64,000 nt of DNA from Candidatus Brockarchaeota archaeon (GCA_017601345.1 JAFNIT010000004.1:379-64378), one strand, 5' to 3'. Positions 10,989 through 45,882 are shown, numbered from the stretch's first letter. Numbers and translations: made by a program. Notes: a model not told the origin generated them from the sequence alone.

Positions 10989-11600
10989 TTGGATATAGAC
11001 AGTCTTGTAGAATTGATTAGAAACAAGGCTTGGAAGCATTATTCTCCAGAACCCGGGCATGACTGGTTGCACGCCGAGAGAGTCTACAGAATGTGCATGA
11101 AGATTAGAGAAAGAGAAGGAGGCGATCCCGAGGTGCTTGCTGCAGCAGCATTACTTCACGACGTTGGTGTTCAAAACGAATTGGAGCAGAACGTAGACCA
11201 CTCGGAGGAGAGCGCTAAAATCGCAGGCGAAATACTTCGCGAAATAGGTTTCTCAAGCCATAAGATAAAAAAGGTCCAGGAGGTGATTAGGCAACATAGA
11301 TTTAAAAACAGTGTTAAAGCAACTACTTTGGAGGCGAAAATTTTACAAGACGCCGACCGCTTGGATGCGATTGGAGCAATAGGAATAGCGAGAACTTTTT
11401 CTTACGGGGGTAGTAGGAAGGTCCCCATGTATTCTGATGACAGGAATGTTACCTCCACTCTTCAACACTTCCATGATAAGCTTCTCAAAATAAGAAGTGT
11501 GTTAAACACTGAGACTGCTAAAGCAATTGCTAAAGAGAGACATGAATTCATGGAGGTTTTCTTATCAAGGTTTTTGAAAGAGATTGAGGGAGAAGCTTGA
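10989..11600 (+). CDS. HD-domain phosphohydrolase
   Basis: 203 aa; H...LLHDVG...DADRLDAIG. TTG start. Confidence 0.75.
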   Translation: MDIDSLVELIRNKAWKHYSPEPGHDWLHAERVYRMCMKIREREGGDPEVLAAAALLHDVGVQNELEQNVDHSEESAKIAGEILREIGFSSHKIKKVQEVIRQHRFKNSVKATTLEAKILQDADRLDAIGAIGIARTFSYGGSRKVPMYSDDRNVTSTLQHFHDKLLKIRSVLNTETAKAIAKERHEFMEVFLSRFLKEIEGEA

Positions 11601-11646
11601 CCCTATATTTTTAAGTAGCCTTCTAAACATTTCTTCCGGGTAAAGG

Positions 11647-12402: not shown

Positions 12403-12637
12403 GCTTACCCCAATATATTTTGATGAGCTCCTCGTAATACTCCCCCGAAGCCATACTGTCTTCAATAAGCTTGACTAAAGAATAAATCTCGTCGAAAAAC
12501 ACAATATCCTCAGCCGATACGCCTCTTCTCCTCATTTTCCTCACCCCCCTTATTCCTAAACCAGCCTCCATTAGTGTAAGCGTTAAGACAGTATGTTTCA
12601 ACTCCTTAAGCTGATTTCTAAAACGGTCTGCGAACAA
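12374..12637 (-). CDS. Hypothetical small protein
   Basis: 87-aa ORF of non-repetitive composition; overlaps the 3' end of the GPN gene by 29 nt. No motif recognised. Confidence 0.3.
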   Translation of the reverse strand: MFADRFRNQLKELKHTVLTLTLMEAGLGIRGVRKMRRRGVSAEDIVFFDEIYSLVKLIEDSMASGEYYEELIKIYWGKLNGDLHTHI

Positions 12638-12681
12638 TACGACTCTGACCTAAATCATGCGCGAGGTTTATTAAAAAGCTC

Positions 12682-14127
12682 ATGGCTCTAAAAAGCATGG
12701 ATATCGTTGAACTCTTGAAAAAGATTCTTGATTATGCTATTGCATCGGGGGCATCATATGCCGAGGCCAGGTTTCACAACGATTTTGAGAAAAGCATTAC
12801 TTTAAAAAACGGAGAAGTCGAGGCAGTTGAAGCAAGTTACGAAAGAGGCGTAGGCATTAGGGTTATTGTTAACGGCGGACTTGGTTTCGCCTCCACAAAT
12901 CTTCTCAAGCCTGAAACAATTACTCACGTTATAGATAGGGCTGTTAAAACGGCTAGAGCATCCTCTTCATTAAAGTCTGTTAGCATAAAGTTCTCGGATG
13001 AAGAGCCTTACTCCGTCGACTGGAGAGTTTTCGAAAAGAAGAGCCTAGAGAACTGGGGCTTAAAAGACAAAGTTGATTTCCTGAAGAAACTGGATAGTGA
13101 GATTTTAAGCCAGAGTGTGAACGTTTCATCCAGATACTTAACCTACAGTGAGGAAAAAACTGAGAGAGTATATGTTAATACTGAGGGCTCGCTAGTATTA
13201 GCAACGGTTCCACGACCCTCGTTTTTCGCATTAATAACTGTTTCCGATTCGTCCAAGGGAGTCATACAGAGAACTCTTCAATTCGGAGGATCCGGCGGCT
13301 TAGAAGTCGTAGATTCTTGGAGGCTTGAGGAGAAAGTGAAGGAGGAAGTCAAGGTTCTCCGCAAGATGCTCGTAGACTCTGTAATGCCTCCGGAGGAAAT
13401 CATGGACGTCGTCATCGGAAGCGAAGTGACAGGCATAGTGTCGCATGAGGCTTCTGGACACCCTGGGGAGGCTGACAGGATACTGGGCAGAGAAGGGGCT
13501 CAAGCAGGAGAATCCTATTTAAAGCCGACAGACATAGGGAGGAAAATAGGAAGCGAAGTCGTCAACCTGGTTGACGACCCTACTTTACCGGGCTCGTACG
13601 GTTTCTATCTTTTCGATGATGAGGGGGTTAAGGCTAGGAGAAAATATTTGATAAAAGACGGTAGGATATGCGAGTTTCTGACGAATAGAGAGACTGCTGC
13701 AAGCCTCGGGATTAAAAGCAACGGATCGGCTAGAGCCTCCGGGTACAATGTTGAACCGATAGTAAGGATGTCAAATACATTCATGCTTCCAGGCGAATAT
13801 ACTTTAGAAGAGCTTTTGAACGATGTCTCTAAGGGAGTCTACATCAAGAGCTTTATGGAGTGGAACATTGATGATAAGAGGTGGAATCAGAGATACGTGG
13901 GGCTGGAGGCCTACATGATAGAAGATGGTAAAATAACCGTCCCGGTGAGAAACCCAGTCATAGAGATTACAACTGAAAAGCTTTTCTCAAGCATTGACGC
14001 TGTAGGCAGAGACTTGGATTTCACAGCAGCAACATGCGGTAAGGGAGATCCCATGCAGGGAGTACCTGTGTACACCGGAGGGCCGAGTGTGAGAATCAGA
14101 AGAATCAGAATAGGGAGGGTTGAATGA
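12682..14127 (+). CDS. tldD: TldD-family metalloprotease
   Basis: 481 aa; VSHEASGHPGEADR (HExxxH); typical GGxGG and C-terminal core. Confidence 0.85.
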   Translation: MALKSMDIVELLKKILDYAIASGASYAEARFHNDFEKSITLKNGEVEAVEASYERGVGIRVIVNGGLGFASTNLLKPETITHVIDRAVKTARASSSLKSVSIKFSDEEPYSVDWRVFEKKSLENWGLKDKVDFLKKLDSEILSQSVNVSSRYLTYSEEKTERVYVNTEGSLVLATVPRPSFFALITVSDSSKGVIQRTLQFGGSGGLEVVDSWRLEEKVKEEVKVLRKMLVDSVMPPEEIMDVVIGSEVTGIVSHEASGHPGEADRILGREGAQAGESYLKPTDIGRKIGSEVVNLVDDPTLPGSYGFYLFDDEGVKARRKYLIKDGRICEFLTNRETAASLGIKSNGSARASGYNVEPIVRMSNTFMLPGEYTLEELLNDVSKGVYIKSFMEWNIDDKRWNQRYVGLEAYMIEDGKITVPVRNPVIEITTEKLFSSIDAVGRDLDFTAATCGKGDPMQGVPVYTGGPSVRIRRIRIGRVE

Positions 14128-27107: not shown

Positions 27108-27743
27108 TTGAATAGCATAGTTGAAATACCCTTAACCTCCTTCATTGTGTCTCTTTCAGGAGCCCTTGCCCCAGGCCCCCTGATGGTTACAACTGTTAGA
27201 GAATCCTCTTATATGAGGAGTTTCAGGCCAGGGCTACTCCTGTCTCTTGGACACGCGTTAGCAGAAGCTCCCGTCACTCTAATGCTAACTTACGGATTGC
27301 TTAATGTTAGCGAGGATTTTTATCCTATCATAAGCGTATTTGGCGGGATTTTCTTAGCCGCAATGGGCATTTTATCTTTTTTAAAAAAGGCGAGGAGCAT
27401 TGAAGCCCAGGAAGTTGCACGAGCTCACCGTCCAATGACTATGGTTGCATTGGGAGCGACAATATCTGTTTCAAACCCATACTGGATTACTTGGTGGCTT
27501 ACCGTAGGAGCAACCTATGTTTCTAAGTCGCTACCCTGGGGCGTGCTGGGGATAGTCTTATTCTACATCAGTCATCAAATGGGGGATTTTGCTGTTCTAG
27601 GATCCATCTCAAAGCTAATGGCTAGTGGTGCTAGAAGCATTGGGGAGAAAGGATTGAAAATTCTAATTATCGTGTGCAATATTGCAATAATAGCGATAGG
27701 CGTCTCATTCATGCTGGAAGGGGCTCGTGTTTTCAAGCCTTAA
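27108..27743 (+). CDS. LysE/RhtB-family amino-acid exporter
   Basis: 211 aa, 5-6 TM, N-terminal GALAPGPL motif. TTG start. Confidence 0.6.
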   Translation: MNSIVEIPLTSFIVSLSGALAPGPLMVTTVRESSYMRSFRPGLLLSLGHALAEAPVTLMLTYGLLNVSEDFYPIISVFGGIFLAAMGILSFLKKARSIEAQEVARAHRPMTMVALGATISVSNPYWITWWLTVGATYVSKSLPWGVLGIVLFYISHQMGDFAVLGSISKLMASGARSIGEKGLKILIIVCNIAIIAIGVSFMLEGARVFKP

Positions 27744-27787
27744 ATCACGAGCACTCTTGGAGGAGGCTGTTTTACGGCTGGAAGAGA

Positions 27788-30658
27788 ATGTTTTTCAACC
27801 TTCTACTAGTTTTTCTCCCTGTGGAGAATCTGTCCAGCGAAGAAGTTGTTTCAATGCTTGGAGAGCCCGTTGCCAAGCTTGTTTTAGAGAGGGGGCTCGT
27901 TCCATTAACCGAGCCGCAGCTTAAAGCAATACCTGAAATAATTGATGGGAATAACGTTCTGATAGTGGCTCCGACGGGGATAGGGAAGACTGAAGCAGCC
28001 CTGCTCCCGATTTTAAGCATAATGGTTAAAGAGAAGATTAATGTTAAAAAGGGAGTGTTTCTGCTCTACATAACTCCGCTTAGAGCTCTAAACAGAGACC
28101 TGGTGGAGAGAATAGGCTGGTGGGCTAGCAGGCTCGACCTGAAGCTCTCAGTAAGGCATGGGGATACTCCGTCTTCCGAGAGAAGAACCCAGTCGTTAAG
28201 TCCTCCTCACATCCTTATCACGACGCCGGAGACCTTTCAAATCCTGCTGATAGGCACTAGGCTCAGGAGCCATTTGAAAACTGTAAGATGGGTTGTGGTT
28301 GACGAGCTTCACGAACTGGCTTCAGACAAAAGGGGGAGCCAACTCTCTCTCGGCTTGGAGAGGCTTAAGAGGCTTATAGGAGGGAAAATACAAATCATAG
28401 GGCTCTCCGCCACCATAGGCGAGCCGGAGCAGCTTGCGCGCTTCCTCGTAGGGACAGATGGTGATTTTAAGGTTGTTGCAACGCCAGTGCCTAAGGACAT
28501 TGAAATAAGCCTCGTGCTCCCAGACGTTACTAATGAGGATTATTTGCTGGCGGAGAAGCTCTTGACAACTCCCGAGGTGTCGGCGAGGCTCAGAGTGATT
28601 AAGGAGGCGCTTGGTGGAAGCAATGCGTTACTGCTCTTCACAAACACTAGAGCCACGGCCGAGGTGCTCTCCAACAGGCTACTGGTAATGAACCTCCCCA
28701 CTCCTGTTTCCATCCACCATGGGTCTCTCGGCGTCGAGGCAAGGGTTAGGGCGGAGGAAGGGTTGAAGGAAGGAGAGTTAAGAGGAGTAGTATGCACATC
28801 CAGCCTCGAACTGGGCATAGACGTCGGTGCCATAGACTTCGTGATCCAATACGGCTCGCCGAGACAGGCTTCAAGACTCATTCAGAGAATCGGGAGGAGC
28901 GGGCATAGGATAGGATTAACCTCTCGAGGAATGATTTTATGCATGGATGAAGACGATGCTACTGAATCTATTATCTTGAGGAGAAGGGCTTTAAACAGCA
29001 TTTATGAACCAGTTTCGCCTCCAGAGGCCCCGTATGATATTCTTGCACACCAAATAGTAGGGATGCTCTTGGAAAAGAACAGGTGGGGTGTAGAAGAAAT
29101 ATTGAAGCTTATTCAAGGCAGCGCATCATACTCAAGAATTTCGATAGAAGAATTGGAGAGGGTTCTAGAGTTTCTTTCAACACAGTATCCTAGACTATTG
29201 TTTTTCGAAAAGTACAGTGACACGATTAGAGCTGGGAGAAGAGGAGAGCTGATAAGGTTCTTCTTCGAACATATTTCGAGCATACCTGAGGTTAAGCAGT
29301 ACCCTGTTTTCAACGAGGATGAAAACCTAGTCGTCGGAAACCTTGATGAAGAGTTCGTGGCGGAGAAAGGACTCCCCGGGACGAAATTCGTAATGGGGGG
29401 ATTAGTATGGTCGATAATTCAGGTTTTTAATGGAAAGGTCATAGTTAAGAAGGCGGAGGATTCTTTGGGAGCAGTACCCTTCTGGACTGGTGAAGAAATA
29501 CCTGTTACTTATGAAGCGGCGACAGAAGTAGGAGCTTTCAGGAGGATGATTGAAGAGGAGTATCGCAAGGGAAGCAGCTTGGAGGAAATAGTTGAAAAAG
29601 CGTCTGGAGAATACGGTGTTGAGAAGGATTTCGCTCTTAAGATCGTTAAGCCGATTGTAGAATGCCTTGAGAAAGGTATACTCATCGGTACTGATAGAAG
29701 AATCGTGTTTGAGAAATGGGGCGACTACACTATCATACACGCATGCTTGGGAGACCTTGGAAACAGGGCTTTATCCAAGATAGTTGGGTCAATAGTTCTT
29801 TCCGAAGTCGGTTTAACGGTCCCAGTGAGTAGAGACCCTTACCGGGTGATGGTTGAAAGAGTGGTTTCGCCGTCGATAATACTTGACAGGCTTAGGAAGC
29901 TTGATGAAAAAGAGGTTATGAGAATGCTTTTAGAAAACATTGAGAACGCGGGTCTTTTCAAGAGGAGGTTCCTACATGTTGCTAGGAGGATGGGGATAAT
30001 AGAGAAGGATGCTGATCTTACGTCGATAAGGCTAGAATCGCTCATAAGAAACAGTAAGGGAAGCATTGTTTACGATGAGGCCGTTAAGGAGTTACTATCT
30101 AAAGACTACGATGTAAAACCCCTGATGAATATGATTAGAGGAATCGTCTCAGGGGAGATTGAAACCATAATATATGAAAGCGGCGCTGAACCCTCACCCT
30201 TAGCTAAGCCTATTCTCAGACAGGGTGAGAGACATCTTGACATATATCCCCCCGAGAAGGCTGACAAGATAATCCTAATGTATGCTTCAGCAAGGCTCAG
30301 GAACACTCCTCTAGAACTCGTATGCAGCGAATGCGGATTTCCCTACGGCACTATTAAGCCTGAGGAGTATACTTCAGAGATGAGGTGTAGCAGATGCGGC
30401 GGCAAACTGGGTGCGAATCCTACTCCAGGCGTCAGGATTAGGCGTGGAAAATCCAAGAGGATAAAAATGCTCTTCAAAAAGATTTTTAGGACGGCGGAAT
30501 TGTTAGAGAAATATGGTAGGGATGCTGCTATAGCCCTGGCTGGAAGAGGATTAAGCCTGAAGACTGTTGAGAAGATATTGGTTAGGAGAAGCATGACTGG
30601 AGAGGATATCGTGAAAATGATTGTTGACGCTGAGAGACGGCGTTTTCAAAAAGCTTAG
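27788..30658 (+). CDS. lhr: Lhr-type large DEAD/DEAH-box helicase with C-terminal zinc ribbon
   Basis: APTGIGKTEAALLP, DELH, SAT, HHGSL, QRIGRSGH; long C-terminal extension with CSECG...CSRCGG. Start uncertain: the ORF opens at 27674 overlapping the LysE gene, with Met at 27788 or 27854. Confidence 0.8.
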   Translation: MFFNLLLVFLPVENLSSEEVVSMLGEPVAKLVLERGLVPLTEPQLKAIPEIIDGNNVLIVAPTGIGKTEAALLPILSIMVKEKINVKKGVFLLYITPLRALNRDLVERIGWWASRLDLKLSVRHGDTPSSERRTQSLSPPHILITTPETFQILLIGTRLRSHLKTVRWVVVDELHELASDKRGSQLSLGLERLKRLIGGKIQIIGLSATIGEPEQLARFLVGTDGDFKVVATPVPKDIEISLVLPDVTNEDYLLAEKLLTTPEVSARLRVIKEALGGSNALLLFTNTRATAEVLSNRLLVMNLPTPVSIHHGSLGVEARVRAEEGLKEGELRGVVCTSSLELGIDVGAIDFVIQYGSPRQASRLIQRIGRSGHRIGLTSRGMILCMDEDDATESIILRRRALNSIYEPVSPPEAPYDILAHQIVGMLLEKNRWGVEEILKLIQGSASYSRISIEELERVLEFLSTQYPRLLFFEKYSDTIRAGRRGELIRFFFEHISSIPEVKQYPVFNEDENLVVGNLDEEFVAEKGLPGTKFVMGGLVWSIIQVFNGKVIVKKAEDSLGAVPFWTGEEIPVTYEAATEVGAFRRMIEEEYRKGSSLEEIVEKASGEYGVEKDFALKIVKPIVECLEKGILIGTDRRIVFEKWGDYTIIHACLGDLGNRALSKIVGSIVLSEVGLTVPVSRDPYRVMVERVVSPSIILDRLRKLDEKEVMRMLLENIENAGLFKRRFLHVARRMGIIEKDADLTSIRLESLIRNSKGSIVYDEAVKELLSKDYDVKPLMNMIRGIVSGEIETIIYESGAEPSPLAKPILRQGERHLDIYPPEKADKIILMYASARLRNTPLELVCSECGFPYGTIKPEEYTSEMRCSRCGGKLGANPTPGVRIRRGKSKRIKMLFKKIFRTAELLEKYGRDAAIALAGRGLSLKTVEKILVRRSMTGEDIVKMIVDAERRRFQKA

Positions 30659-30777: not shown

Positions 30778-31329
30778 TCAAGCACTTAGAATATAATGTA
30801 TGAATTTTTCTACGTCGAGTTCTGCAAAAGTCCTCCAGCCTAATACAAGGTTGTCCCCATCTTCCGCAATGTACCCCCTCCGTATATACCTGGCTAGGTT
30901 AAGCTTAACCTTCCATTCGGGAAACTTTTTCTTCAATATCTCTTCCACTTCCTTAACTGGGGCTGAGCCCTTGTGGGAAATTATCGTTGAGATGACAACA
31001 GCCAATCCAGCGATCTCATCTATCGACCAACCTAGGGTTTTCACGGCAGTCAGGCTTAGTTCATCCTTAAGCGTAACGTAGAACCTTGCTGTCGAGAGCT
31101 TGCTTTCATCATCGCTCATGCTGAGCTCGCTTCCATCATCCGAAACAATCTTTATTGTTAATCCCAGTTCTTGGAAACGTGTGTTGAGAAACTTGATTAT
31201 TGAAAGGTAACCTGGTCCAAGGTTCTTCTTAAGTTCCCATCCTTTAACTCCAGGAGTCCTATGGCTTTTAAACAGTAAGAGCTGCACTGCCCGCGCAACT
31301 TTGCTCCTTATCCTTTCCTCCTGCTCCAA
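30778..31329 (-). CDS. Tandem winged-helix 'kite'-like protein (Nse3/MAGE- or ScpB-like) of the second SMC-like operon
   Basis: 183 aa. KVARAVQLLLFKSHRTPGVKGWEL...ARFYVTLKDEL (WH-A-like) and GLAVVISTIISHKGSAPVKEVEEIL...YIRRGYI...LGWRTFAELDVEKFIHYI (WH-B-like) follow the MAGE-homology pattern as I recall it. Confidence 0.5.
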   Translation of the reverse strand: MEQEERIRSKVARAVQLLLFKSHRTPGVKGWELKKNLGPGYLSIIKFLNTRFQELGLTIKIVSDDGSELSMSDDESKLSTARFYVTLKDELSLTAVKTLGWSIDEIAGLAVVISTIISHKGSAPVKEVEEILKKKFPEWKVKLNLARYIRRGYIAEDGDNLVLGWRTFAELDVEKFIHYILSA

Positions 31330-31341
31330 GGCACCCGCCCC

Positions 31342-32058
31342 TTATATTGGTAGAGCTACGGAATGCTTTTCCACGTCTTTTGGAGTCGTCTTGAAAACCC
31401 AGACCTTGTTGGTCAAGGGGTCTTGCATAACTCCTACTAAGCCCTTAGTCATGAGGAAGCTTAAGGCTAATGCTCTGAATACTTTCCTCTTCTCCCCTTC
31501 CCTACTTATCAAAATATAGTAGTCAACGGGATCCTGACCCATCTCGTTTAAAATCTTCTCCATCTCGCTTTCGAAATCAGCCTCCTCCATTTTTAGAAGC
31601 TCGTTGAGCATGTTAATGGCACTAGACATCGGGATTTCTCCCATCTCGGGAAGCAAGTATTCTCTCAGGCTAGCCCAGTAGCCATAGGCTGTTCGCATTA
31701 TATTCATAGTGGCTTGCTCATTTTCAGCAACTGGTCTGAATGCTTTAAGGAAAGCCCCTGCAAGCCTCTCACTATCAAGCCCCATGAGCCGTACTTCCAT
31801 AAGGAAGGGGTCAAGATAGAGTCTGCTAGCCCTCTTCTTAACATCCTCCTGCTGGAGTAATATTATGTAGATTAATTTCAGCAGAGCAGCCATATTCATC
31901 ACGAGGGTTCTCTCATCCATTTCAAGCAGGCCTTCTCTAAGTCTCCTAAGGTTCTCTTTGACGTCTACGATAAAAGGGTCAATATTTTTCTCAATAACCT
32001 CATCACAAAGATGGATTATCCTCTCGATCAACTCAACGTATTTGCTGATCGGCGGCAT
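31342..32058 (-). CDS. Kleisin-like protein (ScpA/Nse4-like) of the second SMC-like operon
   Basis: 238 aa. N-terminus has IDPFIVDVKENLRRL...LVMNMAALLKLIYIILLQQ (ScpA-like N-domain). C-terminus has RKVFRALALSFLMTKGLVGVMQDPLTNKVWV (C-terminal WH pattern). Confidence 0.5.
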   Translation of the reverse strand: MPPISKYVELIERIIHLCDEVIEKNIDPFIVDVKENLRRLREGLLEMDERTLVMNMAALLKLIYIILLQQEDVKKRASRLYLDPFLMEVRLMGLDSERLAGAFLKAFRPVAENEQATMNIMRTAYGYWASLREYLLPEMGEIPMSSAINMLNELLKMEEADFESEMEKILNEMGQDPVDYYILISREGEKRKVFRALALSFLMTKGLVGVMQDPLTNKVWVFKTTPKDVEKHSVALPI

Positions 32059-32165
32059 TCAATTCAATCCCTCTAGCCGTGTAACCCGTGGTTAATGGAA
32101 TAAATATAAACATAACCTTCAGAAGAGAACTTTATTCCCACTGTTTATAATGAAAAGCCTTATCC

Positions 32166-33947
32166 CTAGCTCTGTTCAACCTCGAGTACTCTCGACTCGT
32201 CTTGAACTTTTTGAACAACTATTATGTGCGCATCTTCGACAGGAGGGGGTGTTCCAGGTGTTATGCATAAGTATGCTACTCCAGGATTCTCTCTGACAAC
32301 TTCAGAGAGTATTTGGAAGAACCTTTTTCTCATGAGCGGGTCCATGTGTACATCTAGCTCATCGATCCCCCTGATGCTTGATTTGACTAGTGACTGAAGG
32401 GCCATTAAGAAGGACACTACTGTTGCACTCCTCTCGCCACCGCTCTGAGTGTAGACGTTGAACTCCGTTAGAGGACCTCCGCCGAAGCTTACGAATATCA
32501 CGAGGCCAGCGTTATCAACATCTTCCATATTCACTAAACGTAAGTCGCCGGTCCCACCCATGGTTTCCATATTCTTCTTAAAACCCTCGTTAATCTTTTC
32601 AACGACAGCCATCATCTTTCTCCTCCATATCTCTATTCTCTCTTTAAGCTCGTCTTCAGCAGCCATTCTGTTTTCAACGACAACTTTAACCTTCTGCTCA
32701 AGGTCACTATACACCTTGAGGTAATTTTTGTAAAACTCTTCCGCATTCTCTGAAACCGTGCCGAGAGAGGCTATTTGAATAATGCAGTCGTTAATCTTCT
32801 TCTCTATTACATCCGGGAGATCGACTTCTTTTGGCGGCTCACCTTCAAGCTGACCCTTAACCTCGTTAATCTTCGATTCAATAGATCTTTCCTTCTCCTG
32901 GAGGCGGCGACGTTCAGCCTCCAGCTCTCTCAACCTATACTTTATTACCTCAGCCCTAACATTTAACTTCACGTACTTCCTTATCAACTTGGTTATCTCC
33001 TCGTCGAGCTTACTATACTCGTCGATGAGCCCTTCAACATCAGCCTTGCCTTCCGAGGCCTTGAAGAAAATCCCCTTTAGCTTCATCCTAGCCTTATTAA
33101 GGCTGTTCCAAACTTTCTCTGCCTTCTCGACGTTTCTTGAAGCGATTTTATTGCCTCTGTCAATCCTCTCCTCAATTTTGGAGATCCTCTCCCGGATCCT
33201 CAGTTTCTCGCCGTTAAGTTGGTTGAAAACACTCCACTTAAGAAGCCTGTTCAACTCAGCATGGAGCATCTGCAGCTCTCTCCTCTTAACAAGCTTCTCG
33301 TATTCTGCTCTCCACATCTCAAGGGTCTCACGGGCTTCGTTCAAAAGAGCCTCCACAGCCTTCTCTTCGCTTACGATTTTGCTCAATCTCTCTCTTGAAG
33401 CCTTTATATTATCCCTTAAGCCCGAAAGCCCGATAGCGCCCTCCACTAGCTTAAGCTTCTCAGAAGGGTCTAGTGATGCGAACTCCTCAATCATGTATTG
33501 ATGCATCATTATGAGCATGTTTGAAGGGTCTATTCCGAAAAATGAAAGTATCTCGTCAACCTCCATCTTCGTAGCAGGATTGTAATTTATCTGGCTCCAA
33601 TATTCTCCGTCTCTCCTTAAATACCTAGTTATAACGAGCTCGTCGGATCTTACGAAGGACACTGGCCTCTTACCGTCAACCCCCGGAGAGTTATCGAATA
33701 TCAGTGTAACTCTAGCAATATCCTCGCCAATCCTTATTAAATCGCTCAGTTTCTCAGCCCTGCCACTGCGCGACTGTCCGAGGCCGACTGAAATACCCCA
33801 GAGAATCGAAGATTTTCCGGAGCCATTAGGGCCGAGAATAAGATTAAGCCCGGGGCGAATAGTAATCTTACTATAACGATAACTCATGAAGTTCTCTAAA
33901 ATCACCTCTTTCAGTCGAAGCCTTTTTTCTTGTTCTACTGTTTCCAC
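32166..33947 (-). CDS. Compact SMC-like ABC ATPase (593 aa, short coiled coil, no obvious hinge or zinc hook)
   Basis: ENFMSY...LILGPNGSGKSS (Walker A), MMHQYMIEEF (Q-loop), QSGGERSATVVSFLMALQ (signature), IDELDVHMDPLMRKRFF (Walker B/D-loop). About 270 aa of heptad-rich sequence lies between the head halves. Confidence 0.75.
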   Translation of the reverse strand: METVEQEKRLRLKEVILENFMSYRYSKITIRPGLNLILGPNGSGKSSILWGISVGLGQSRSGRAEKLSDLIRIGEDIARVTLIFDNSPGVDGKRPVSFVRSDELVITRYLRRDGEYWSQINYNPATKMEVDEILSFFGIDPSNMLIMMHQYMIEEFASLDPSEKLKLVEGAIGLSGLRDNIKASRERLSKIVSEEKAVEALLNEARETLEMWRAEYEKLVKRRELQMLHAELNRLLKWSVFNQLNGEKLRIRERISKIEERIDRGNKIASRNVEKAEKVWNSLNKARMKLKGIFFKASEGKADVEGLIDEYSKLDEEITKLIRKYVKLNVRAEVIKYRLRELEAERRRLQEKERSIESKINEVKGQLEGEPPKEVDLPDVIEKKINDCIIQIASLGTVSENAEEFYKNYLKVYSDLEQKVKVVVENRMAAEDELKERIEIWRRKMMAVVEKINEGFKKNMETMGGTGDLRLVNMEDVDNAGLVIFVSFGGGPLTEFNVYTQSGGERSATVVSFLMALQSLVKSSIRGIDELDVHMDPLMRKRFFQILSEVVRENPGVAYLCITPGTPPPVEDAHIIVVQKVQDESRVLEVEQS

Positions 33948-34024
33948 CGATGTCTGGTTTCTTTAGGCTTAGATAAGGATTTTCGCCGATGGAAAATGGT
34001 TAAAAGCTGATTATAAGGCTTAAT

Positions 34025-34729
34025 GTGGGGATGGTTACTGCAGGCAAGATATTCAGGCTCGACGAATACTTATCTCAAAACGAGCTTGCTCAGAGACTCA
34101 AGGGGTATAGGGTTGAAACCCCGCTGGAAGGAACTGATTTAACGCTCGTTGCCGAGGTTACTGGCCTTAGGGCCTCTCAAAACATGCTGGAAGGGGTTTT
34201 GAGCAGGGATATTCCTGTAACTTTGAGAAGAAGGGATAAGACGGAAATCGCTATTAAGACCGTTGACTCCGTCTTCAGCTTTGTTTTCCGGAAGAGGAGG
34301 GTTTTCCTCATAGTGTTGGAGAAGAAGCCTGTTGCAAACATGGTTGCCAACATGTTCAGCCAGATAATATTTCTTAAAAGCGGGAAGATAGTTGAGGCAA
34401 GGATCTCCCCGAAGGTCATGCTGGAATATCATAATGCTAATAGCGATGCTGCTAAAGTTGTTTTCTTCGACAATGTTGACATACCTAACATAGAGAAACT
34501 ATCCTTGTACGGGCCTTCGCTAGCGAACACTAGCCTGTTCGCGGAGTATTTGAAGCATGGGGATATATGGTATGTAGTGATTTCCCATCGTAAATCAGGC
34601 TATGTCGCCGGAATCACTAGAGACAGTGTGGTAACTATTTTCAGCAAGATCGATCCAGCTTCATTCATAAAGTTCTCCATTGAGGAGATTATTCCGCTTG
34701 TTGAAGAATCCGAGTCCTCTAAGACGTAG
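34025..34729 (+). CDS. Hypothetical protein, divergently transcribed from the SMC-like operon
   Basis: 234-aa ORF (GTG start) of normal composition; no motif recognised. Confidence 0.35.
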   Translation: MGMVTAGKIFRLDEYLSQNELAQRLKGYRVETPLEGTDLTLVAEVTGLRASQNMLEGVLSRDIPVTLRRRDKTEIAIKTVDSVFSFVFRKRRVFLIVLEKKPVANMVANMFSQIIFLKSGKIVEARISPKVMLEYHNANSDAAKVVFFDNVDIPNIEKLSLYGPSLANTSLFAEYLKHGDIWYVVISHRKSGYVAGITRDSVVTIFSKIDPASFIKFSIEEIIPLVEESESSKT

Positions 34730-35309
34730 ACATGAGGGTTTCGTATTCGCTTTCTGTCAGAGCATCAAGCTTCCTCAGGCTTTCAACAAGATTTCTAAAC
34801 TCGAACACGTAGTGGAGCTCTACGCCTTTTTTCCTAAGCTTTTCAGCAGCGTTCTTACTCTGACACACTATTACCACAGCATCCTCAACGACTCCCCCCT
34901 CCCATACGATCTTATCAACAGCCTTCGATACCTGTCTACCTGTTGAAACAAAGTCGTCTATTATAAGCACTTTATCACCCATCTTGAACAACCCCTCTAC
35001 AGACTTGGCTTTTCCCTCTCTGAGAAGCAACATCGGCCTACCGGTTTTGAGGGAAACGTAGGAGGCATATGGTACTCCGGCTAATGGGACCCCCAGGACA
35101 GAGTTAAACTTCTCAACTCCGACCTCTTTTCTAACAACCTCAACCATCCTCCTCGCAACCTTATTGAAAACCCTGGGATTGCTTAGGACGACTGTTAAAT
35201 CAAGTACGAAAGGTTGTAGAATACCCTCATCCGTTTTCTCAGGCCATATGAGGAACCCTCCTGTCTGAACAAGGCTTTTAGCAACCAGGTCAACTAAGCT
35301 TGTAGACAA
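34719..35309 (-). CDS. pyrE: Orotate phosphoribosyltransferase(-like)
   Basis: PRPP-binding motif KVLIIDDFVSTGRQ; size and layout of type I PRTases. Confidence 0.65.
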   Translation of the reverse strand: MSTSLVDLVAKSLVQTGGFLIWPEKTDEGILQPFVLDLTVVLSNPRVFNKVARRMVEVVRKEVGVEKFNSVLGVPLAGVPYASYVSLKTGRPMLLLREGKAKSVEGLFKMGDKVLIIDDFVSTGRQVSKAVDKIVWEGGVVEDAVVIVCQSKNAAEKLRKKGVELHYVFEFRNLVESLRKLDALTESEYETLMSTS

Positions 35310-35970
35310 AGGGCTTTCCTACTTCGAGTATTGCAAGCTCTGTCTTTAAGCCTTTCTTTTTAACAACCCGCTGAATATCCTTCACGCTTTCCCCATAGCA
35401 GGGAATTATCAGCTTAGATTCAGTATTGCTCACTGATTCGAGGAATGATGCGATACTAGCCTTGGGGTTGAAACCCACCGGCAGGAAAGTGATGTCAGGC
35501 TTCTCCTCCTTAGTTATCTTGCTTAAGGTCTTCGATATTAAGGATTGGCCTGTTTGAAATAGCTTACAGCCATTTTCAAGAGTTATCATGTAGGTTACTG
35601 GTGTGGATGCCTCACGGTTTTCACTAGGGTATGATTTTATAACCAGGCCTTCGCTCACTAAGAGCTTATTGGGTGCTGCTGGAATAAGCATTTCTTTAGG
35701 TATCTGCGACCGGAGTATTCTGTAGCTTGTCTCGTCCGCGATTATCTTCCCTATCTTCTTCAGACAATGCAGCTCCATTATCACGTTCTCATCGAAACTC
35801 TCCGGCTGCTCGTCTGTTATCAGAACGTAATCCAGTGATTCGACACTATTAACATCTATTTCTGAAGGGTTTGTAAGAAGCCTTTGTGTTTGCGTGACGA
35901 TGTAAACGCAGGAATACTTGTTTAACCTAGTCAGCACGACTTCAGCTTTACCTGGTTTTATAATGCTCAA
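35290..35970 (-). CDS. Hypothetical protein, possibly a degenerate MBL-fold (UlaG-like) protein
   Basis: LDYVLITDEQPESFD sits where MBL proteins carry HxHxDH; the metal ligands appear lost. Confidence 0.3.
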   Translation of the reverse strand: MSIIKPGKAEVVLTRLNKYSCVYIVTQTQRLLTNPSEIDVNSVESLDYVLITDEQPESFDENVIMELHCLKKIGKIIADETSYRILRSQIPKEMLIPAAPNKLLVSEGLVIKSYPSENREASTPVTYMITLENGCKLFQTGQSLISKTLSKITKEEKPDITFLPVGFNPKASIASFLESVSNTESKLIIPCYGESVKDIQRVVKKKGLKTELAILEVGKPFVYKLS

Positions 35971-40786: not shown

Positions 40787-43700
40787 TTGCATCTCACCAA
40801 GATTGAGATTAGGAATTTCAAATCTATAGGAGACCGGCAAGTAATAAACCTGAGCAAAGGGCTGACGGTGCTGACGGGTAGAAACGGCTCAGGCAAATGT
40901 GTTGCGCCATGGATGCCCGTGGCCCAGCCTTGGGGAGGTAAACCTATAGAATCTCTTTTCCATGACGCTTGTTCCGACGGCATAAGGATTAGTGAAGAGA
41001 CTTCTGAGTACGTGATTCCCTCTGGGAAAGTGATGCTATTAAGTTACCATGGACGCCTAAACAAGTGTTTAGAAACCAGCGTTAGTACTTTTTTCAGAAA
41101 GCCTTACGACGGCTGGTTATTAAAACTGGTAACGTTATCAGGTAGGATCGTCGAAGTTACTCCAGAGCATAGAATAGCGGTAGCTTTTAGCACCAGTTTT
41201 AAATGGGTTGAAGCATCGTCTCTAACGCCGGATAGTAAAATAATGGTTTTTGAAAACGGGAAGATTAGGATCGATGTCTTAGACAAGGTTGTTAGGAAGC
41301 GTTGGGCAGGCATGGTTTACGACCTCTACGTAAGAAACGTTGGGTCATACATTATTGGAGACGGAGTAATAGTTCATAATAGTAATCTGGTTGACGCAAT
41401 ACGTTTCGCATTAGGAGAGAATAGCCCTAAGCTACTCAGAACTGATAGGCTTTCCTCCCTAGTCAATGATAACGCTGGAAAAGATGCGGAAGCATATGTG
41501 AAAGTAACCATAGATAACAGTGATTCCGCCATTCCCGGCCAAGATAAGATCATTACGATAGCGAGAAGAATGGGACGTGATGGAGAGAGCACATACCATA
41601 TCAATGGCAGAAGAACCCCTAGGAATGTTATTGAAGACATAATCTCTACAGCCGGTCTTTCAGCCAGAGGGTACAATATAATTCTTCAAGGAGAAATATC
41701 AAGACTTGCAGATAAGAATCCGGTGGAGAGAAGAAGGGAGATCGAGCAGGCGCTTGGCCTAGCCCAGTACGATGAGAAAAAGATGGAGGCCCTTAACAAC
41801 CTGCAGCAAGCAGACAATAATCTTAGGGTTGCACAGGCCAGGCTCCAAGAAATAGATAGGAGGATGCTCCAGTTAGAAAGGGAGAGGAACCTTCTTTTGA
41901 GAAGACGGATGCTTGAGAAGGAGATTGAAAAAGTACAGCTTATAATAGACTCTCTCGAGTACTGGAGGCTCATAAATAAGCTTAATGATGTTTCTGAAAG
42001 AATTGAAGAGAACAATGTTTTAAAAAACAAGCTTGAAAACGAACTTTATGCAATACAATCTGAAAGGAAGAAACTTATGGAAAGAACTGAAGAGTTATTG
42101 AAGGCAGTTCCATCAATCGGTGATTCTGAGAAGATTAAGCTTGAGTATGAGCTTAAAGATTGTGAAAGACAGCTCTACGAATGTTTGAAAAATACAGAGG
42201 AGGAAAATCTAGAATTAAATACTATTAAAAAAGAACTAAGGAAAGTTAAGAAGAAGAAAAGCAAGATGCAGGGAAAGATTAAACGATTACTAAAAGTTGC
42301 AAGCAGGATGTCGACAAAATATTCTTCCCTCACTAATCTACTCACTGGGCTCTCAGAAGAGAAGAAGAGAATGCAAGAAATTGAGAGGAGAAGGATGGAA
42401 GAAGCTTATCAGATCAGAAGCCAATTAACTATGGTTGAGAAAGAGTTGGAGAAGACACTTGTAGAAGAAAAGAATGCTGAAAGGATGCTGAAAGATATTC
42501 TCATTCATTATAACGGTGTTAGGAGGAGAATGAGTAACTTGAACAGGATGAAAAACAGAGAGAGCGCTAGGAGGAGCAGATTAATAGAAAAACTAGACGA
42601 CCTTGAAAAATCACTGGCGGAGAGAAGAAAAACACTTAGCAATACTATTGAAATGCTTAAAGTCCTTACCGAAAGCATGGATGTGTTCAGAATATTCTTT
42701 GCAAAGGCATCTGGCGCTTTAAGCTACAGGGATAGGAAAGATAAGGGGAGAATCCTAGAGCTTATGAGAAGAATCTTAGAAGAGAAGGGTTTAAGAGTCT
42801 ATGGAATTTTAAGGGAAAACCTCTGGTTCCCTGAGGATGTTAAAAAGGCTGTTGAAAGCCTGGCCGGAGAGTGGATGGACTCCGTTCTAGTTGGGAATTC
42901 GCTAGATATGCTTGTGTTAACGAAACTGTTCAGCGGAGAAACCACTGGCATAAGAGTGTTAACGCCTGAAGGAGAAATCTCTAAAAAGGAAGTGCCCTCT
43001 AAGTTTAATGGACGGGGCACCCATCTAATGGATTTGCTTAAGTATCCTAAGGTTATTGAGAAACATGTTTTAAAAATATTCTGGAATAGTGTTTTGGCAA
43101 ACAGTGTTGAAGATGCTTTAGCTTTTGTGAAGAATGGTTTTAAAGCAGTAACTCGAGACGGGCAGGTTTTCACAAGCGAAGGCGCGTTAATACCGGATGA
43201 TAGTGATAAGGAATTTGAAAATATCCTGAAATTTATTAAAACCTTCACTGGGAAGGCTGGAGAATTGTCTAAGATGATTGAAACAGTAGAGATGCACATA
43301 AAACATTCTTTAAGCAGGAAGATGGTGGAGACAACAGAGTTCCGAAACAAGCTTGAAGGCGAGTTAAATGCCATCGACGCATATATGAGTAGGCTGGAGG
43401 AACAATTGAATATTCTAGCTAATGAATACTTGTCGACCTCTAGGAGACTTAACCAAGTTTTTAGAGAACGGAATACTGGCAAAAAGCGTTTGCTTGAAAA
43501 AGAGTTGCAAAGACTAAGATCTTCGATAACTTTGAAAGAGAAGGAGTTGAGGAACATCCGGAAGAAGATAGGCCTGCTTGAAGAGAAGATGGAGAAATTA
43601 GATAATGAAAAAATGCGAGTTAGAAGAAGCTTAATAGAGATTGAGAACATTGTTAATACACTGCGTAGGAGAATTGAGGAATATAGGAAAGTTGAGGGAG

Positions 43701-44683
43701 CATTAGCAAGTAGTATTTTTGCGATTAGGAATGAAATTAGAAGCTCCATAGTTTTAGCAAACGATCTTAGGAATAAAATAGAATTCTTAAAGTCGAAGAT
43801 AGGGGAGGATGCTGGAGTAGAATACGGGGAGAGAGGTGAGCTTGTTGAAGCAATACGGAGACTTGATGAAGAGGCTGAGAGATTAAATTCAGAGATTAAT
43901 AGGGTTAAAGACGTTGAGAGGAGGCTTCTAGTAGAGAAAGAAGTTAATGAAAGCAAGATAGAAGAGCTGAGAAACAGAATTCTGGGTCAACCATTACGGG
44001 TGCCGGAAGAAACTAGAGACTCTGCGGAGAGGTACTTAAGCATTCTTAAGAGCGAGCTTGAAAAAGTCCGAGAAGTAAACATGCTCGCTATTAAGCAGTA
44101 TGAACAGGAGATAGATTTCTATAGGAATGCCTTAGAAAGGATTAACGAGCTGGAGGAAGAGAGGAGAAGCATTCAAGAGTTTATGGAGGAAATTGAAAGA
44201 AAGAAAAGAGAGGCTTTTCTAGAGGGTTTGAGCAAAATAAACAGTTATTTCTCAACGTTTTTCAACAAGATGACCGGCGGAGAAGGCTGGCTTCAACCTG
44301 AGGATCCTGATAATCCTCTCGAAACAGGCTTGAACGTCTACGTTAAGTTCCCGGGAAAGGAGGCTAGAGTAATAAGTGGAGTAAGCGGGGGGGAGAAGTC
44401 AGTTGCAGCACTCTGCCTAATCTTTGCGATGCAGAAACTTTTTCCAGCAGCATTCTACATTTTCGACGAACCAGATGCGCATTTGGATTACGTCAACATC
44501 GATAAGATGACTGACCTCCTTAAGGAAGTCTCTAAGGAGAGTCAGATCATAGTAATATCACTCAGAGATGTCGTCGTCAGCAAGGCTGATAAGGTTATAG
44601 GAGTATACGTTAAGAAGGGGATGTCAAGGTTCATGGAGATGCCAGGCGAGAGGGCTCTGGAGGAGATAGCTGTTGCTGGATGA
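40787..44683 (+). CDS. smc: Chromosome segregation protein SMC (canonical), precursor carrying a mini-intein in the Walker A loop
   Basis: IEIRNFKS...LTGRNGSGK|C...HN|SNLVDAIRFALGE; long coiled coils; hinge region about aa 700-800; SGGEKSVAALCLIFAMQ; FYIFDEPDAHLD. TTG start. Confidence 0.9.
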   Translation: MHLTKIEIRNFKSIGDRQVINLSKGLTVLTGRNGSGKCVAPWMPVAQPWGGKPIESLFHDACSDGIRISEETSEYVIPSGKVMLLSYHGRLNKCLETSVSTFFRKPYDGWLLKLVTLSGRIVEVTPEHRIAVAFSTSFKWVEASSLTPDSKIMVFENGKIRIDVLDKVVRKRWAGMVYDLYVRNVGSYIIGDGVIVHNSNLVDAIRFALGENSPKLLRTDRLSSLVNDNAGKDAEAYVKVTIDNSDSAIPGQDKIITIARRMGRDGESTYHINGRRTPRNVIEDIISTAGLSARGYNIILQGEISRLADKNPVERRREIEQALGLAQYDEKKMEALNNLQQADNNLRVAQARLQEIDRRMLQLERERNLLLRRRMLEKEIEKVQLIIDSLEYWRLINKLNDVSERIEENNVLKNKLENELYAIQSERKKLMERTEELLKAVPSIGDSEKIKLEYELKDCERQLYECLKNTEEENLELNTIKKELRKVKKKKSKMQGKIKRLLKVASRMSTKYSSLTNLLTGLSEEKKRMQEIERRRMEEAYQIRSQLTMVEKELEKTLVEEKNAERMLKDILIHYNGVRRRMSNLNRMKNRESARRSRLIEKLDDLEKSLAERRKTLSNTIEMLKVLTESMDVFRIFFAKASGALSYRDRKDKGRILELMRRILEEKGLRVYGILRENLWFPEDVKKAVESLAGEWMDSVLVGNSLDMLVLTKLFSGETTGIRVLTPEGEISKKEVPSKFNGRGTHLMDLLKYPKVIEKHVLKIFWNSVLANSVEDALAFVKNGFKAVTRDGQVFTSEGALIPDDSDKEFENILKFIKTFTGKAGELSKMIETVEMHIKHSLSRKMVETTEFRNKLEGELNAIDAYMSRLEEQLNILANEYLSTSRRLNQVFRERNTGKKRLLEKELQRLRSSITLKEKELRNIRKKIGLLEEKMEKLDNEKMRVRRSLIEIENIVNTLRRRIEEYRKVEGALASSIFAIRNEIRSSIVLANDLRNKIEFLKSKIGEDAGVEYGERGELVEAIRRLDEEAERLNSEINRVKDVERRLLVEKEVNESKIEELRNRILGQPLRVPEETRDSAERYLSILKSELEKVREVNMLAIKQYEQEIDFYRNALERINELEEERRSIQEFMEEIERKKREAFLEGLSKINSYFSTFFNKMTGGEGWLQPEDPDNPLETGLNVYVKFPGKEARVISGVSGGEKSVAALCLIFAMQKLFPAAFYIFDEPDAHLDYVNIDKMTDLLKEVSKESQIIVISLRDVVVSKADKVIGVYVKKGMSRFMEMPGERALEEIAVAG
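40898..41380 (+). mobile_element. Class-1 mini-intein (161 aa, no homing endonuclease domain) within smc
   Basis: Starts with Cys right after GSGK, has the block B TxxH motif (VTPEH), and ends ...GDGVIVHN followed by Ser(+1). Removal restores GRNGSGKSN. Confidence 0.8.
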
Positions 44684-45341
44684 AGCTCAGGAAGCATCTG
44701 AATTAATATTCGACTTAATAAGGCTAAGGAGAGTTAATCCGTGGGATGTTAAAATATCCGGTGTCTTGAAGCAGTTATCCAAAGAGCTTCGCGGAAAAGG
44801 CTATATGCAGTTCACCCTTTCAGGACTATTGTTATTAGCATCCTCCATAATCTACTTGAGGAAGACAGAGACCCTTCTAAACATCGAGCCAAAAGGAGAT
44901 GAAGATGCTGGGGAAATCAAGGATGTTGCAGACTTTCCTCTAGAAGCACTTGATAAAATAAGTCCTTCAAACATCCCCCTCAGACCTTCGCAACCCGTTA
45001 TAGATCTTGAACAACTGGTTAAAGCACTCCTCCGCATATTGGAGAAAGAATATTCGAAGAAACCTGTTGAAGAAGAGCCTTTGCCACCAATAGTCCCCCA
45101 GCAAGACGAGTTTATGAGAAACATTGAGAAAATGGTTGAGGAGTTTAAGAAAAGCCTTTTCGAACAGGTAGTTAGCCAAGGCAGGGTTCCTTTGAGAAGC
45201 CTACTTGAAGGAAAACAGCCCCTTGAAGCAGCTAGAACGTTCATATTAATACTCTTCGTACTGTCTGAGCCCGGTTTCGACATTGTTTTCGAAGGTGACG
45301 AGTGCTACATAGTGGCGGAGGATGGTTTTGAAGGAATCTGA
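44673..45341 (+). CDS. scpA: Segregation and condensation protein A (kleisin)
   Basis: 222 aa, overlaps the smc stop. N-terminal LIRLRRVNPWDVKISGVLKQ and C-terminal AARTFILILFVLSEPGFDI fit ScpA. TTG start. Confidence 0.75.
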   Translation: MLDEAQEASELIFDLIRLRRVNPWDVKISGVLKQLSKELRGKGYMQFTLSGLLLLASSIIYLRKTETLLNIEPKGDEDAGEIKDVADFPLEALDKISPSNIPLRPSQPVIDLEQLVKALLRILEKEYSKKPVEEEPLPPIVPQQDEFMRNIEKMVEEFKKSLFEQVVSQGRVPLRSLLEGKQPLEAARTFILILFVLSEPGFDIVFEGDECYIVAEDGFEGI

Positions 45342-45882
45342 ATATAAAAAGAGGATTGAGGCAGCACTGTTCGCGTCAGGCAGACCATTAAGCATTTTAC
45401 AACTCAAGTCTGCAGCAGGAGCTAGAAAGGTTGAGAAGGTTGAGAACGCTTTAGGAGAGTTGATTGAAGAATACAGGTCGAGAGATACAAGTCTTGAAAT
45501 AGTCGAGATAGGTCATGAAAACTACATGCTTAGAGTAAAGCCCGAGTACGTCAACTTCATTAAAAAGCTAGGGGTAAAGCCTATGATCAGCAGAGCTGGT
45601 TTGAAAACTCTGACTCTGATAGGTTTAAAACAGCCGATTGCGCAGTCTAAGATTGTCGCCCTACGGGGGACGCATGCTTATAAACAGATCCGGAAGTTGA
45701 TTGAAATGGGGCTTGTTGAAGCAAGCAGAAGTGGGAGAAGCAGATTACTAAGTCTCACTCCAACCGGTTTAAGCATTTTCGGTGCATGTAGCGATGAGGA
45801 GCTTAAACAAGCCTTAAGAAGCCGCCTACAACCAATGTCCTCCCATGAACAGAATAGGGAGAATACAGGACAGGCTAAGTAG
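45322..45882 (+). CDS. scpB: Segregation and condensation protein B (kite)
   Basis: RIEAALFASGRPLSILQL and a second WH ...SRAGLKTLTLIGLKQPIAQSKI. Confidence 0.8.
   Translation: MVLKESEYKKRIEAALFASGRPLSILQLKSAAGARKVEKVENALGELIEEYRSRDTSLEIVEIGHENYMLRVKPEYVNFIKKLGVKPMISRAGLKTLTLIGLKQPIAQSKIVALRGTHAYKQIRKLIEMGLVEASRSGRSRLLSLTPTGLSIFGACSDEELKQALRSRLQPMSSHEQNRENTGQAK

Follow-up and report, generated by a model that had tools for sequence, protein, structure and literature searches.

An operon of three genes on the minus strand of a 64,000-nucleotide stretch of DNA from a Candidatus Brockarchaeota archaeon (the window in what follows) in all likelihood encodes an SMC5/6-related paralogue of the archaeal SMC complex, in which an SMC5/6-like ATPase is joined by a kleisin of the Nse4 type and a candidate Nse1/3-like kite, and for which we propose a clamp function. 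It is a further member of a published kind of archaeal SMC5/6-related operon rather than a discovery. The three co-directional genes, encoding proteins of 593, 238 and 183 aa, agree exactly with the coordinates and lengths first proposed when the open reading frames are checked, and currently carry the labels ‘AAA family ATPase’ and ‘hypothetical protein’. The operon and its immediate neighbours are as follows.

32166..33947, minus strand: SMC5/6-related mini-SMC ATPase, 593 aa (open reading frame; SMC_N match; SMC5/SMC6 best in the PDB)
31342..32058, minus strand: Nse4-related kleisin candidate, 238 aa (adjacency; Nse4_C in orthologues)
30778..31329, minus strand: Nse1/Nse3 (MAGE)-like kite candidate, 183 aa (synteny; weak MAGE matches)
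33948..34024, no strand: 77 bp of intergenic DNA separating the ATPase gene from the divergent gene X, with both promoters presumably inside it (coordinates; divergent order recurs)
34025..34729, plus strand: protein X, 234 aa, RdgC-like/TBP-like predicted fold (conserved, unannotated; fold search)
27674..30658, plus strand: aLhr1-type Lhr helicase (Pfam DEAD, Helicase_C, WH_Lhr and DEAD_assoc; convergent with the operon)

The ATPase: an SMC5/6-like head on a short arm

The ATPase is identical to a GenBank entry from Candidatus Brockarchaeota (MBO3799807.1) and matches Pfam SMC_N (3.7e-28) and the NCBIfam model SMC_prok_A (189 bits). Its head motifs (Walker A, signature motif and Walker B/D-loop), split by a coiled coil, are conserved across the family. 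The original prediction had quoted the motifs QSGGERSATVVSFLMALQ and IDELDVHMDPLMRKRFF, both of which are present, and had noted a resemblance to SMC5/SMC6, which is verified by their gap-free match to human SMC5, position by position (QSGGERSVSTMLYLMALQ...VDEINQGMDPINERRVF). When the profile of the ATPase family is compared with the PDB, SMC5 or SMC6 chains take all of the top 10 places (176-186 bits), ahead of an archaeal (Pyrococcus) Smc at 162 bits and SMC2 at 128 bits, and the single sequence gives the same order with SMC5/SMC6 first. As a control we applied the search to the canonical SMC of the window, which finds no SMC5/6 chain at E<=1e-10, and the SMC5/6 flavour ascribed to the head thus holds. 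By sequence, the head thus comes closer to SMC5/SMC6 of eukaryotes than to either canonical SMC or SMC1-4, an affinity that is based on HMM scores and the literature.

The AlphaFold2 model (mean pLDDT 87.7) places the two halves of the head at residues 1-172 and 465-593, joined by an outward arm helix (175-298; 124 residues, or about 18 nm), a 5-residue turn (299-303) and a return arm (304-462), the latter made of a helix (304-364) followed by joint-like breaks at 365-377 and 396-401. The apex is a plain turn with no globular hinge dimerisation domain in the model, and cysteines occur only at 388 and 561, in agreement with the earlier reading of a protein lacking both hinge and CxxC. The best Foldseek match to the model is a construct of Smc head, coiled coil and joint (PDB ID: 5xei; E=2e-26), and the predicted arm of about 18 nm differs from the antiparallel arm of about 50 nm of canonical SMC. 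Neck positions are conserved in the family, the apex is its least conserved stretch and varies in length, and the complete homologues sampled all have 555-697 aa. Going by the model, the ATPase is reduced in this TACK clade to a head, neck and joint plus an arm some 18 nm long with a plain turn at its end. A published hinge-less SMC from marine Actinobacteria proved to belong to a different family.

Partners and neighbours of the ATPase

Since the 238-aa and 183-aa proteins of the window match no Pfam or NCBIfam model themselves, their identity is taken from orthologues and family profiles. A word-index search with the 238-aa protein reached only relatives of at least 68% identity and was replaced by the orthologues in syntenic loci, among which 51 of 77 contain Pfam Nse4_C (best 3.4e-7). 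In the PDB the family profile finds EID3/NSMCE4B at the top (E=0.0049), with yeast Nse4 at 0.13, the C-terminal part of ScpA at 0.15-0.23 and its N-terminal part at 0.56, which upholds the suggestion that the protein is kleisin-like; hhalign gives it a probability of 2% when compared to the ScpA-like protein of the window. For the 183-aa protein the signals are fainter. MAGE is the only Pfam family that recurs among its orthologues, weakly and in 4 of 86 (best 3.6e-4), and the top PDB match of its profile is a Xenopus MAGE/Nse3 chain (7dg2_C), with weak E-values of 0.055-0.09, compared to 0.69 for Nse1. Similarity to the ScpB of the window is undetectable by hhalign, and the protein contains no cysteines, so that it is a kite candidate without a RING.

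Gene neighbourhood, which the original prediction had named as a check, adds to this picture, as the trio is syntenic almost universally across about 95 loci from five archaeal classes, with examples in Brockarchaeota-like archaea, Bathyarchaeia, Methanomethylicia, Korarchaeia, Thermofilales and Nitrososphaerales. Brockarchaeota probably correspond to Thermoproteota class EX4484-205. The kleisin-like gene adjoins the kite-like gene in 56 of 58 metagenome loci, the ATPase gene adjoins the kleisin-like gene in 35 of 40, and the trio is complete in all 14 loci of the first set, which argues against a chance association. Every locus has one ATPase gene and one kite gene, the latter always downstream of the kleisin-like gene where synteny holds. 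Scanning metagenomes from the kite gave a better yield of loci than scanning from the ATPase, for which matches to the generic P-loop pattern dominated a scan of a genome collection, leaving 10 useful loci. The setting is core chromosome rather than defence island, with housekeeping genes as neighbours, among them the RNA polymerase operon in Bathyarchaeia, and the locus is core and vertically inherited.

The canonical genes lie in the same window, as an operon (40787..45882) in which the SMC (40787..44683; Pyrococcus Smc match, 9e-82) and ScpB (45322..45882; Pfam match, 1.8e-34) proposed earlier are confirmed, while the intervening gene (222 aa), which has no Pfam match, is ScpA by position only. 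The operon studied here is a second, additional SMC/kleisin/kite system with affinity to SMC5/6-Nse4-Nse3, distinct from the housekeeping condensin, just as had been predicted. Of the three outcomes that the original prediction had named as refuting it, none came about. The canonical SMC also contains an intein that the earlier reading missed.

That reading likewise made no mention of the conserved divergent upstream gene or of the adjacent Lhr helicase. Protein X is found in 35 of about 95 loci and lies at most 4 kb upstream of the ATPase in 16 of the 25 metagenome loci with enough flank, with few exceptions on the opposite strand; roughly one locus in three lacks it within that distance. Its identity across classes is 39-52%, and neither it nor distant family members have a sequence match in Pfam (the RdgC family included), NCBIfam, PADLOC or the PDB. 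In its AlphaFold2 model (pLDDT 78.6) the most conserved stretch is modelled with low confidence, and the best Foldseek match is E. coli RdgC (PDB ID: 2owl; E=1.3e-4, probability 1.0, TMq 0.53, 7% identity). RdgC, according to work cited in PMC11390915, is a DNA-binding ring dimer with links to fork repair and recombination. The fold match is moderate (303 aa in E. coli RdgC against 234 aa in protein X), and a ring or dimer and DNA binding would be ascribed to X only by analogy, though the predicted fold makes it a candidate accessory DNA-binding partner. An Asgard context was sought through an X homologue labelled Jordarchaeales, whose contig is too short and shows no SMC neighbour. For a family that comprises at least 1,638 protein clusters (90% identity), annotated as hypothetical at present, the recurrent neighbours supply the first context.

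The Lhr gene is probably over-extended, with its start nearer 27788, and its product has the C-terminal Cys-rich motif described for aLhr1. It is convergent with and adjacent to the operon in the window, in loci L001, L002, L004, L006 and L009 and in 8 of 37 metagenome loci, and is a clade-specific neighbour that most loci lack within 4 kb. Being on the opposite strand, X and Lhr are not co-transcribed with the operon. Across the sampled loci no conserved partner besides these two was found. Protein X and, in some clades, the aLhr1 helicase are probably functional partners of the complex, and such neighbours would point to replication-associated repair.

Possible functions of the complex

We propose that the complex acts as a DNA clamp in repair. 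Two ATPase subunits would engage by their heads on binding ATP, a single kleisin would link one subunit, at its neck, to the other, at its cap, and a kite homodimer would be seated on the kleisin, so that DNA may be clamped atop the engaged heads and inside the kleisin/kite compartment, as in the DNA clamp of eukaryotic SMC5/6. As there is no hinge to close off a further compartment, loop extrusion over long range is unlikely; the more likely activity would be to clamp or sense DNA locally, at stalled forks or at recombination intermediates. A more specific version, which we put forward tentatively and which may well prove wrong, is a naturally minimal SMC5/6-type machine of TACK archaea, with a hinge-less ATPase and arms of about 18 nm, that can form only the head compartment closed by kleisin and kite, and works with X as an RdgC-like DNA-binding protein (and with aLhr1 in some lineages) where forks have stalled or on recombination intermediates. 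In that case the DNA clamp of SMC5/6 would be a module that functions autonomously, and the short form would represent either an ancestral condition in this lineage or the outcome of repeated reduction.

The same complex might have another job: rather than a repair factor, it would be a second chromosome-organising machine, a domain organiser of the condensin-like or coalescin-like sort. Vertical inheritance of a core locus whose neighbours are housekeeping genes (in Bathyarchaeia, the RNA polymerase operon among them) would suit this role, as would the restriction of the Lhr link to some clades. To our knowledge, moreover, the prokaryotic SMC/kleisin/kite complexes characterised to date all organise chromosomes or restrict plasmids. 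However, the genome already has a canonical SMC-ScpAB set, segment capture or loop extrusion is hard to picture for a protein that lacks a hinge and whose arm measures about 18 nm, and the recurrent neighbours are a protein with an RdgC-like fold and a repair helicase. We therefore regard an organiser as unlikely, though it is the best of the alternatives.

Much less probable is defence against plasmids or viruses by a system of the Wadjet/Mks or Lamassu type with a short SMC-like ATPase, the first of which had been named as an alternative in the original prediction. PADLOC does return generic short-ATPase matches (mad3, 89 bits; LmuB, 80 bits), eukaryotic SMC5/6 is reported to restrict viral and extrachromosomal DNA (PMC9458440), and Lhr-type helicases occur in BREX as BrxHI, whose model the adjacent Lhr matches (3.6e-101). 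SMC_prok_A and the SMC5 chains of the PDB nevertheless outscore every defence model, and the position next to core genes is kept across classes, unlike that of defence islands. Wadjet/MksBEFG combines a JetC/MukB ATPase with a MukF-like kleisin, a MukE-like kite and a JetD/MksG Toprim nuclease, a combination that was not found here: JetC scores 28.7 bits, and the kleisin-like, kite-like and X proteins have no PADLOC match. Lamassu couples LmuB to an LmuA effector (and LmuC), whereas here neither LmuA nor LmuC accompanies the generic LmuB match. The absence of a nuclease partner noted earlier extends to all the sampled loci, in which no nuclease or other effector recurs; nearby MBL-fold genes, considered for this part, are two unrelated families, each confined to certain clades.

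Least probable of all, and effectively refuted, is a stand-alone ATPase of the Rad50, RecN or ASRP (ClsN/Sph) type with two unrelated genes downstream, for which a short coiled coil without a hinge is typical and weak NCBIfam matches exist (Rad50, 1.7e-17; ASRP, 1.5e-12; RecN, 1.9e-7). These scores, however, lie far under both that of SMC and the family cut-offs (Rad50, 63 bits against 1087; ASRP, 47 against 300). The reading is further contradicted by the lack of the CxxC zinc hook of Rad50 and ASRP, by the lack of an Mre11 neighbour, and by the downstream genes, which keep their place in almost all loci and show signals of Nse4_C and MAGE.

Relation to known systems and significance

An SMC5/6-related archaeal SMC (aSMC) has been described by Yoshinaga & Inagaki 2021 (PMC8665677), and operons of an SMC5/6-related SMC, an Nse4-related kleisin and an Nse1/3-like kite in TACK and Asgard archaea, with TACK homologues sister to eukaryotic SMC5/6, are reported there and by van Hooff et al. 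2025 (bioRxiv 10.1101/2024.01.07.573240). The published table gives operon examples from Bathyarchaeia and Caldarchaeales, as well as Nse4-related and Nse1/3-related neighbours in Thermoproteota class EX4484-205. As far as these sources describe them, the published operons have the same gene order, come mostly from TACK archaea and stand alongside a canonical SMC set, as is the case here, so the novelty that the original prediction implied for this operon type does not stand. Both papers are phylogenetic studies, and in the sections of their text and supplements covered here we found no mention of arm length, the absent hinge, gene X or Lhr; the hinge-less short arm, gene X and the aLhr1 neighbour are, to that extent, points absent from them.

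The complex shares with eukaryotic SMC5/6 the motifs QSGGERS...LMALQ and DE..MDP, a C-terminal kleisin domain of the Nse4 type and, as a candidate, a MAGE-like kite, and the geometry of the DNA clamp is probably comparable. In contrast, its single ATPase gene implies a homodimer in place of Smc5 and Smc6, its single kite gene without a RING stands in place of Nse1-Nse3, and its ATPase has about 590 aa and no hinge compared to about 1,100 aa. No Nse2 docking arm, SUMO or ubiquitin ligase, or Nse5/6 was detected at the mini-SMC loci. With canonical Smc-ScpA-ScpB it has in common the SMC-kleisin-kite order and the fold of head, neck and joint, though the partners have diverged deeply, the hinge is missing and the arm reaches about one third of the canonical length.

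Among eukaryotic SMC complexes SMC5/6 is understood least, and descriptions of its relatives in archaea have until now been confined to phylogeny. If the complex forms as we propose, it would be a natural minimal SMC5/6, built from an ATPase homodimer with a single kleisin and a single kite gene product, lacking a hinge and having arms of about one third the usual length. Such a family could show what the clamp of head, kleisin and kite does alone, and what long arms and a hinge add to it. The genes of the operon could be named in annotation instead of bearing their present generic labels, and the recurrent RdgC-like and Lhr neighbours offer testable leads to the cellular role of the complex.

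An SMC5/6-like ATPase and its partners

The operon consists of three minus-strand genes, whose ORF coordinates agree exactly with the positions and lengths originally predicted.

Features of the operon and its surroundings in the window
27674..30658, plus: aLhr1-type Lhr helicase, convergent with and abutting the kite-like gene; C-terminal Cys-rich motif
30778..31329, minus: ORF, kite-like protein, 183 aa
31342..32058, minus: ORF, kleisin-like protein, 238 aa
32166..33947, minus: ORF, SMC-type ATPase, 593 aa
34025..34729, plus: protein X, 234 aa, conserved but unannotated, divergent from the ATPase gene, 77 bp away
40787..44683: canonical SMC, Pyrococcus Smc match 9e-82
44673-45341, plus: 222-aa gene between SMC and ScpB, presumably ScpA from its position
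45322..45882: ScpB, Pfam match 1.8e-34

The ATPase has the same sequence as GenBank MBO3799807.1, whose annotation reads 'AAA family ATPase [Candidatus Brockarchaeota archaeon]', and it matches Pfam SMC_N at 3.7e-28. Its best NCBIfam model is the archaeal SMC_prok_A, at 189 bits, far under the full-length cut-off of that model; the Rad50, ASRP, RecF and RecN models give much lower scores, and a reading of the protein as Rad50, RecN or ASRP is essentially excluded. When the single sequence is searched against the PDB, human SMC5 (1.2e-27) and yeast SMC5 (7.5e-25) are best, with Pyrococcus Smc at 5.7e-22. For a family profile of 12 sequences the top ten matches are all SMC5 or SMC6 (176-186 bits), ahead of archaeal Smc (162 bits) and SMC2 (128 bits). 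As a control we searched the window's canonical SMC, for which archaeal and bacterial Smc lead, followed by SMC1-4, SMC5/6 chains being absent among its 45 PDB matches at E<=1e-10. The resemblance to SMC5/SMC6 motifs that the original prediction had noted is confirmed by residue alignment, where QSGGERS..LMALQ and DE..MDP...R.F of the ATPase align with human SMC5. A fold search of the model described below returns SMC head, neck and joint (top match 5xei, E=2e-26); as expected, fold search alone does not separate SMC subfamilies. Judged by HMM and search scores, rather than by a tree, the ATPase is SMC5/6-like.

Searched singly against Pfam and NCBIfam, the window's own 238-aa and 183-aa proteins give no match. 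Among orthologues of the kleisin-like protein, 51 of 77 match Pfam Nse4_C (best 3.4e-7), and the best PDB match of the family profile is EID3/NSMCE4B (E=0.0049); yeast Nse4 comes next, as do the C- and N-terminal domains of ScpA (E=0.1-0.6). These matches bear out the proposed kleisin reading, and the assignment is solid. For the kite-like protein, MAGE is the sole Pfam family matched more than once (4 of 86 orthologues, best 3.6e-4); the best PDB match of the profile is a Xenopus MAGE/Nse3 chain, which is weak (E=0.055-0.09), with Nse1 at 0.69, and similarity to the window's own ScpB is not detectable. An Nse1/3 (MAGE)-like kite is a plausible assignment from these searches, and agrees with the literature.

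The canonical operon noted nearby is also real in its SMC and ScpB genes; the presumed ScpA gene between them has no Pfam match at E<=0.01. The Walker A motif of the canonical SMC is interrupted by a mini-intein-like insert of 161 aa (window 40898-41380; GRNGSGK/C...VIVHN/S, slashes marking the insert boundaries), which accounts for the 1,298-aa ORF and for PDB matches that begin near residue 198. The extein would measure 1,137 aa.

A hinge-less ATPase model

The AlphaFold2 model of the ATPase, for which 39 sequences were aligned, reaches a mean pLDDT of 87.7. Its N-terminal head half (residues 1-172) leads into one unbroken helix (175-298), which turns back within 5 residues (299-303); the return arm is broken at 365-377 and 396-401, corresponding to the SMC joint, and ends in the C-terminal head half. 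The model contains no globular hinge, and cysteines occur only at 388 and 561, so that there is no zinc hook; the absence of both hinge and CxxC hook had been read correctly from the sequence. Within the family, conservation is lowest at the apex, the middle region ranging from 243 to 339 residues, and positions of the neck, which lies around residues 188-238 and 406-441, are invariant or nearly so. The complete homologues sampled are all short, measuring 555-681 aa among the top database matches and, across 35 metagenome loci, 591-697 aa.

A conserved operon and neighbourhood

Syntenic loci were gathered by three routes, namely look-up of divergent ATPase homologues, a scan of genome collections and a kite-seeded metagenome scan. 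Synteny in other genomes, the check set by the original prediction, was found almost everywhere: the trio is complete in 14 of the 14 loci of the first set with a complete ATPase gene, and in the metagenome set the kleisin-like gene adjoins the kite-like gene in 56 of 58 and the ATPase gene adjoins the kleisin-like gene in 35 of 40, with four more nearby or inverted. By labels taken from record titles and protein names, the loci span Brockarchaeota, Bathyarchaeia, Methanomethylicia, Korarchaeia (Methanodesulfokora), Thermofilales and Nitrososphaerales. In loci L024 and L026 (6084-7871 vs 9273-10552), which are close relatives (kite 89% identical), the ATPase gene runs in the opposite direction to the kleisin-kite pair and lies about 1.4 kb from it.

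Homologues of protein X are present in 35 of about 95 loci. In about two thirds (16/25) of the metagenome loci with enough flank they lie upstream of the ATPase at a distance of no more than 4 kb, nearly always on the opposite strand. They are 39-52% identical between classes, a conservation exceeding that of the kleisin. Clustered at 90% identity, the family forms at least 1,638 groups, none of which is annotated; at 50% identity it has 225 representatives, each of a single domain and about 230 aa long. None of the sequence-based libraries searched recognises it. In fold search the X model (pLDDT 78.6) comes closest to E. coli RdgC (E=1.3e-4, TMq 0.53), with TBP-like folds next. Confidence in the model is low over residues 145-166 (VFFDNVDIPNIEKLSLYGPSL), where conservation is highest, and this stretch might be an interaction segment. 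In nine loci of a Brockarchaeota-like clade a phosphoribosyltransferase-like gene and an MBL-fold gene lie next to X (window 34719-35970, minus strand). In Nitrososphaerales a 204-aa Lactamase_B gene lies between X and the ATPase gene (L005 4317-4931; L105 7325-7939); it has no significant similarity to that MBL-fold gene, and the two are unrelated.

On the other side, the Lhr ORF is probably over-extended, with a start near 27788, since it overlaps a LysE gene and its homologues measure 945-957 aa. Lhr directly adjoins the kite-like gene, convergently, in the window, in 5 of the 15 first loci and in 8 of 37 metagenome loci, across several clades. At one locus (L009) Lhr paralogues flank the operon on both sides (3990-6821 and 10219-13074). 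In Bathyarchaeia an RNA polymerase operon replaces Lhr as downstream neighbour: a cluster of NusA-KH, L30e/L7Ae, RpoA and RpoB is convergent with the operon in 15-25 loci, 0.1-7 kb downstream of the kite-like gene (L008, L044-L046, L086 and other Bathyarchaeia). This neighbour and the PADLOC result speak for a system of the core chromosome rather than a defence island, and the reading as a defence system is essentially excluded.

Relation to known operons and possible function

Homologues termed 'SMC5/6-related aSMC' were defined by Yoshinaga & Inagaki 2021 (PMC8665677), 66 of 80 being from TACK, often with a canonical SMC alongside. An SMC5/6-related SMC whose partners are a kleisin related to Nse4 and an Nse1/3-like kite has been described by van Hooff et al. 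(bioRxiv 10.1101/2024.01.07.573240), with examples from Bathyarchaeia and Caldarchaeales, and their table gives Nse4-related and Nse1/3-related neighbouring genes in the Thermoproteota class EX4484-205. Among Asgard SMC5/6-related proteins they cite the P. syntrophicum gene NZ_CP042905.1_495. The window's operon is real, and is a further case of this operon type. The SMC5/6-type reading first proposed is thus correct; its novelty does not stand, as the type was already published. The parts of the literature texts and supplements that we consulted make no mention of the hinge, arm length, fourth gene or Lhr.

The analysis shows what the ATPase and the kleisin are, that the operon and its neighbourhood are conserved, and that the ATPase as modelled lacks a hinge. 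The ATPase would homodimerise via ATP-engaged heads and kleisin bridging, the kite may likewise form a homodimer, and DNA would be clamped within the kleisin compartment. X and Lhr suggest a role in replication-associated repair. The main rival, in which the same complex has an organisational role instead, seems to us improbable. Three traits that the family conserves appear undocumented and give the operon its moderate interest, namely an ATPase of minimal, hinge-less form, a neighbour with an RdgC-like predicted fold and the association with Lhr.
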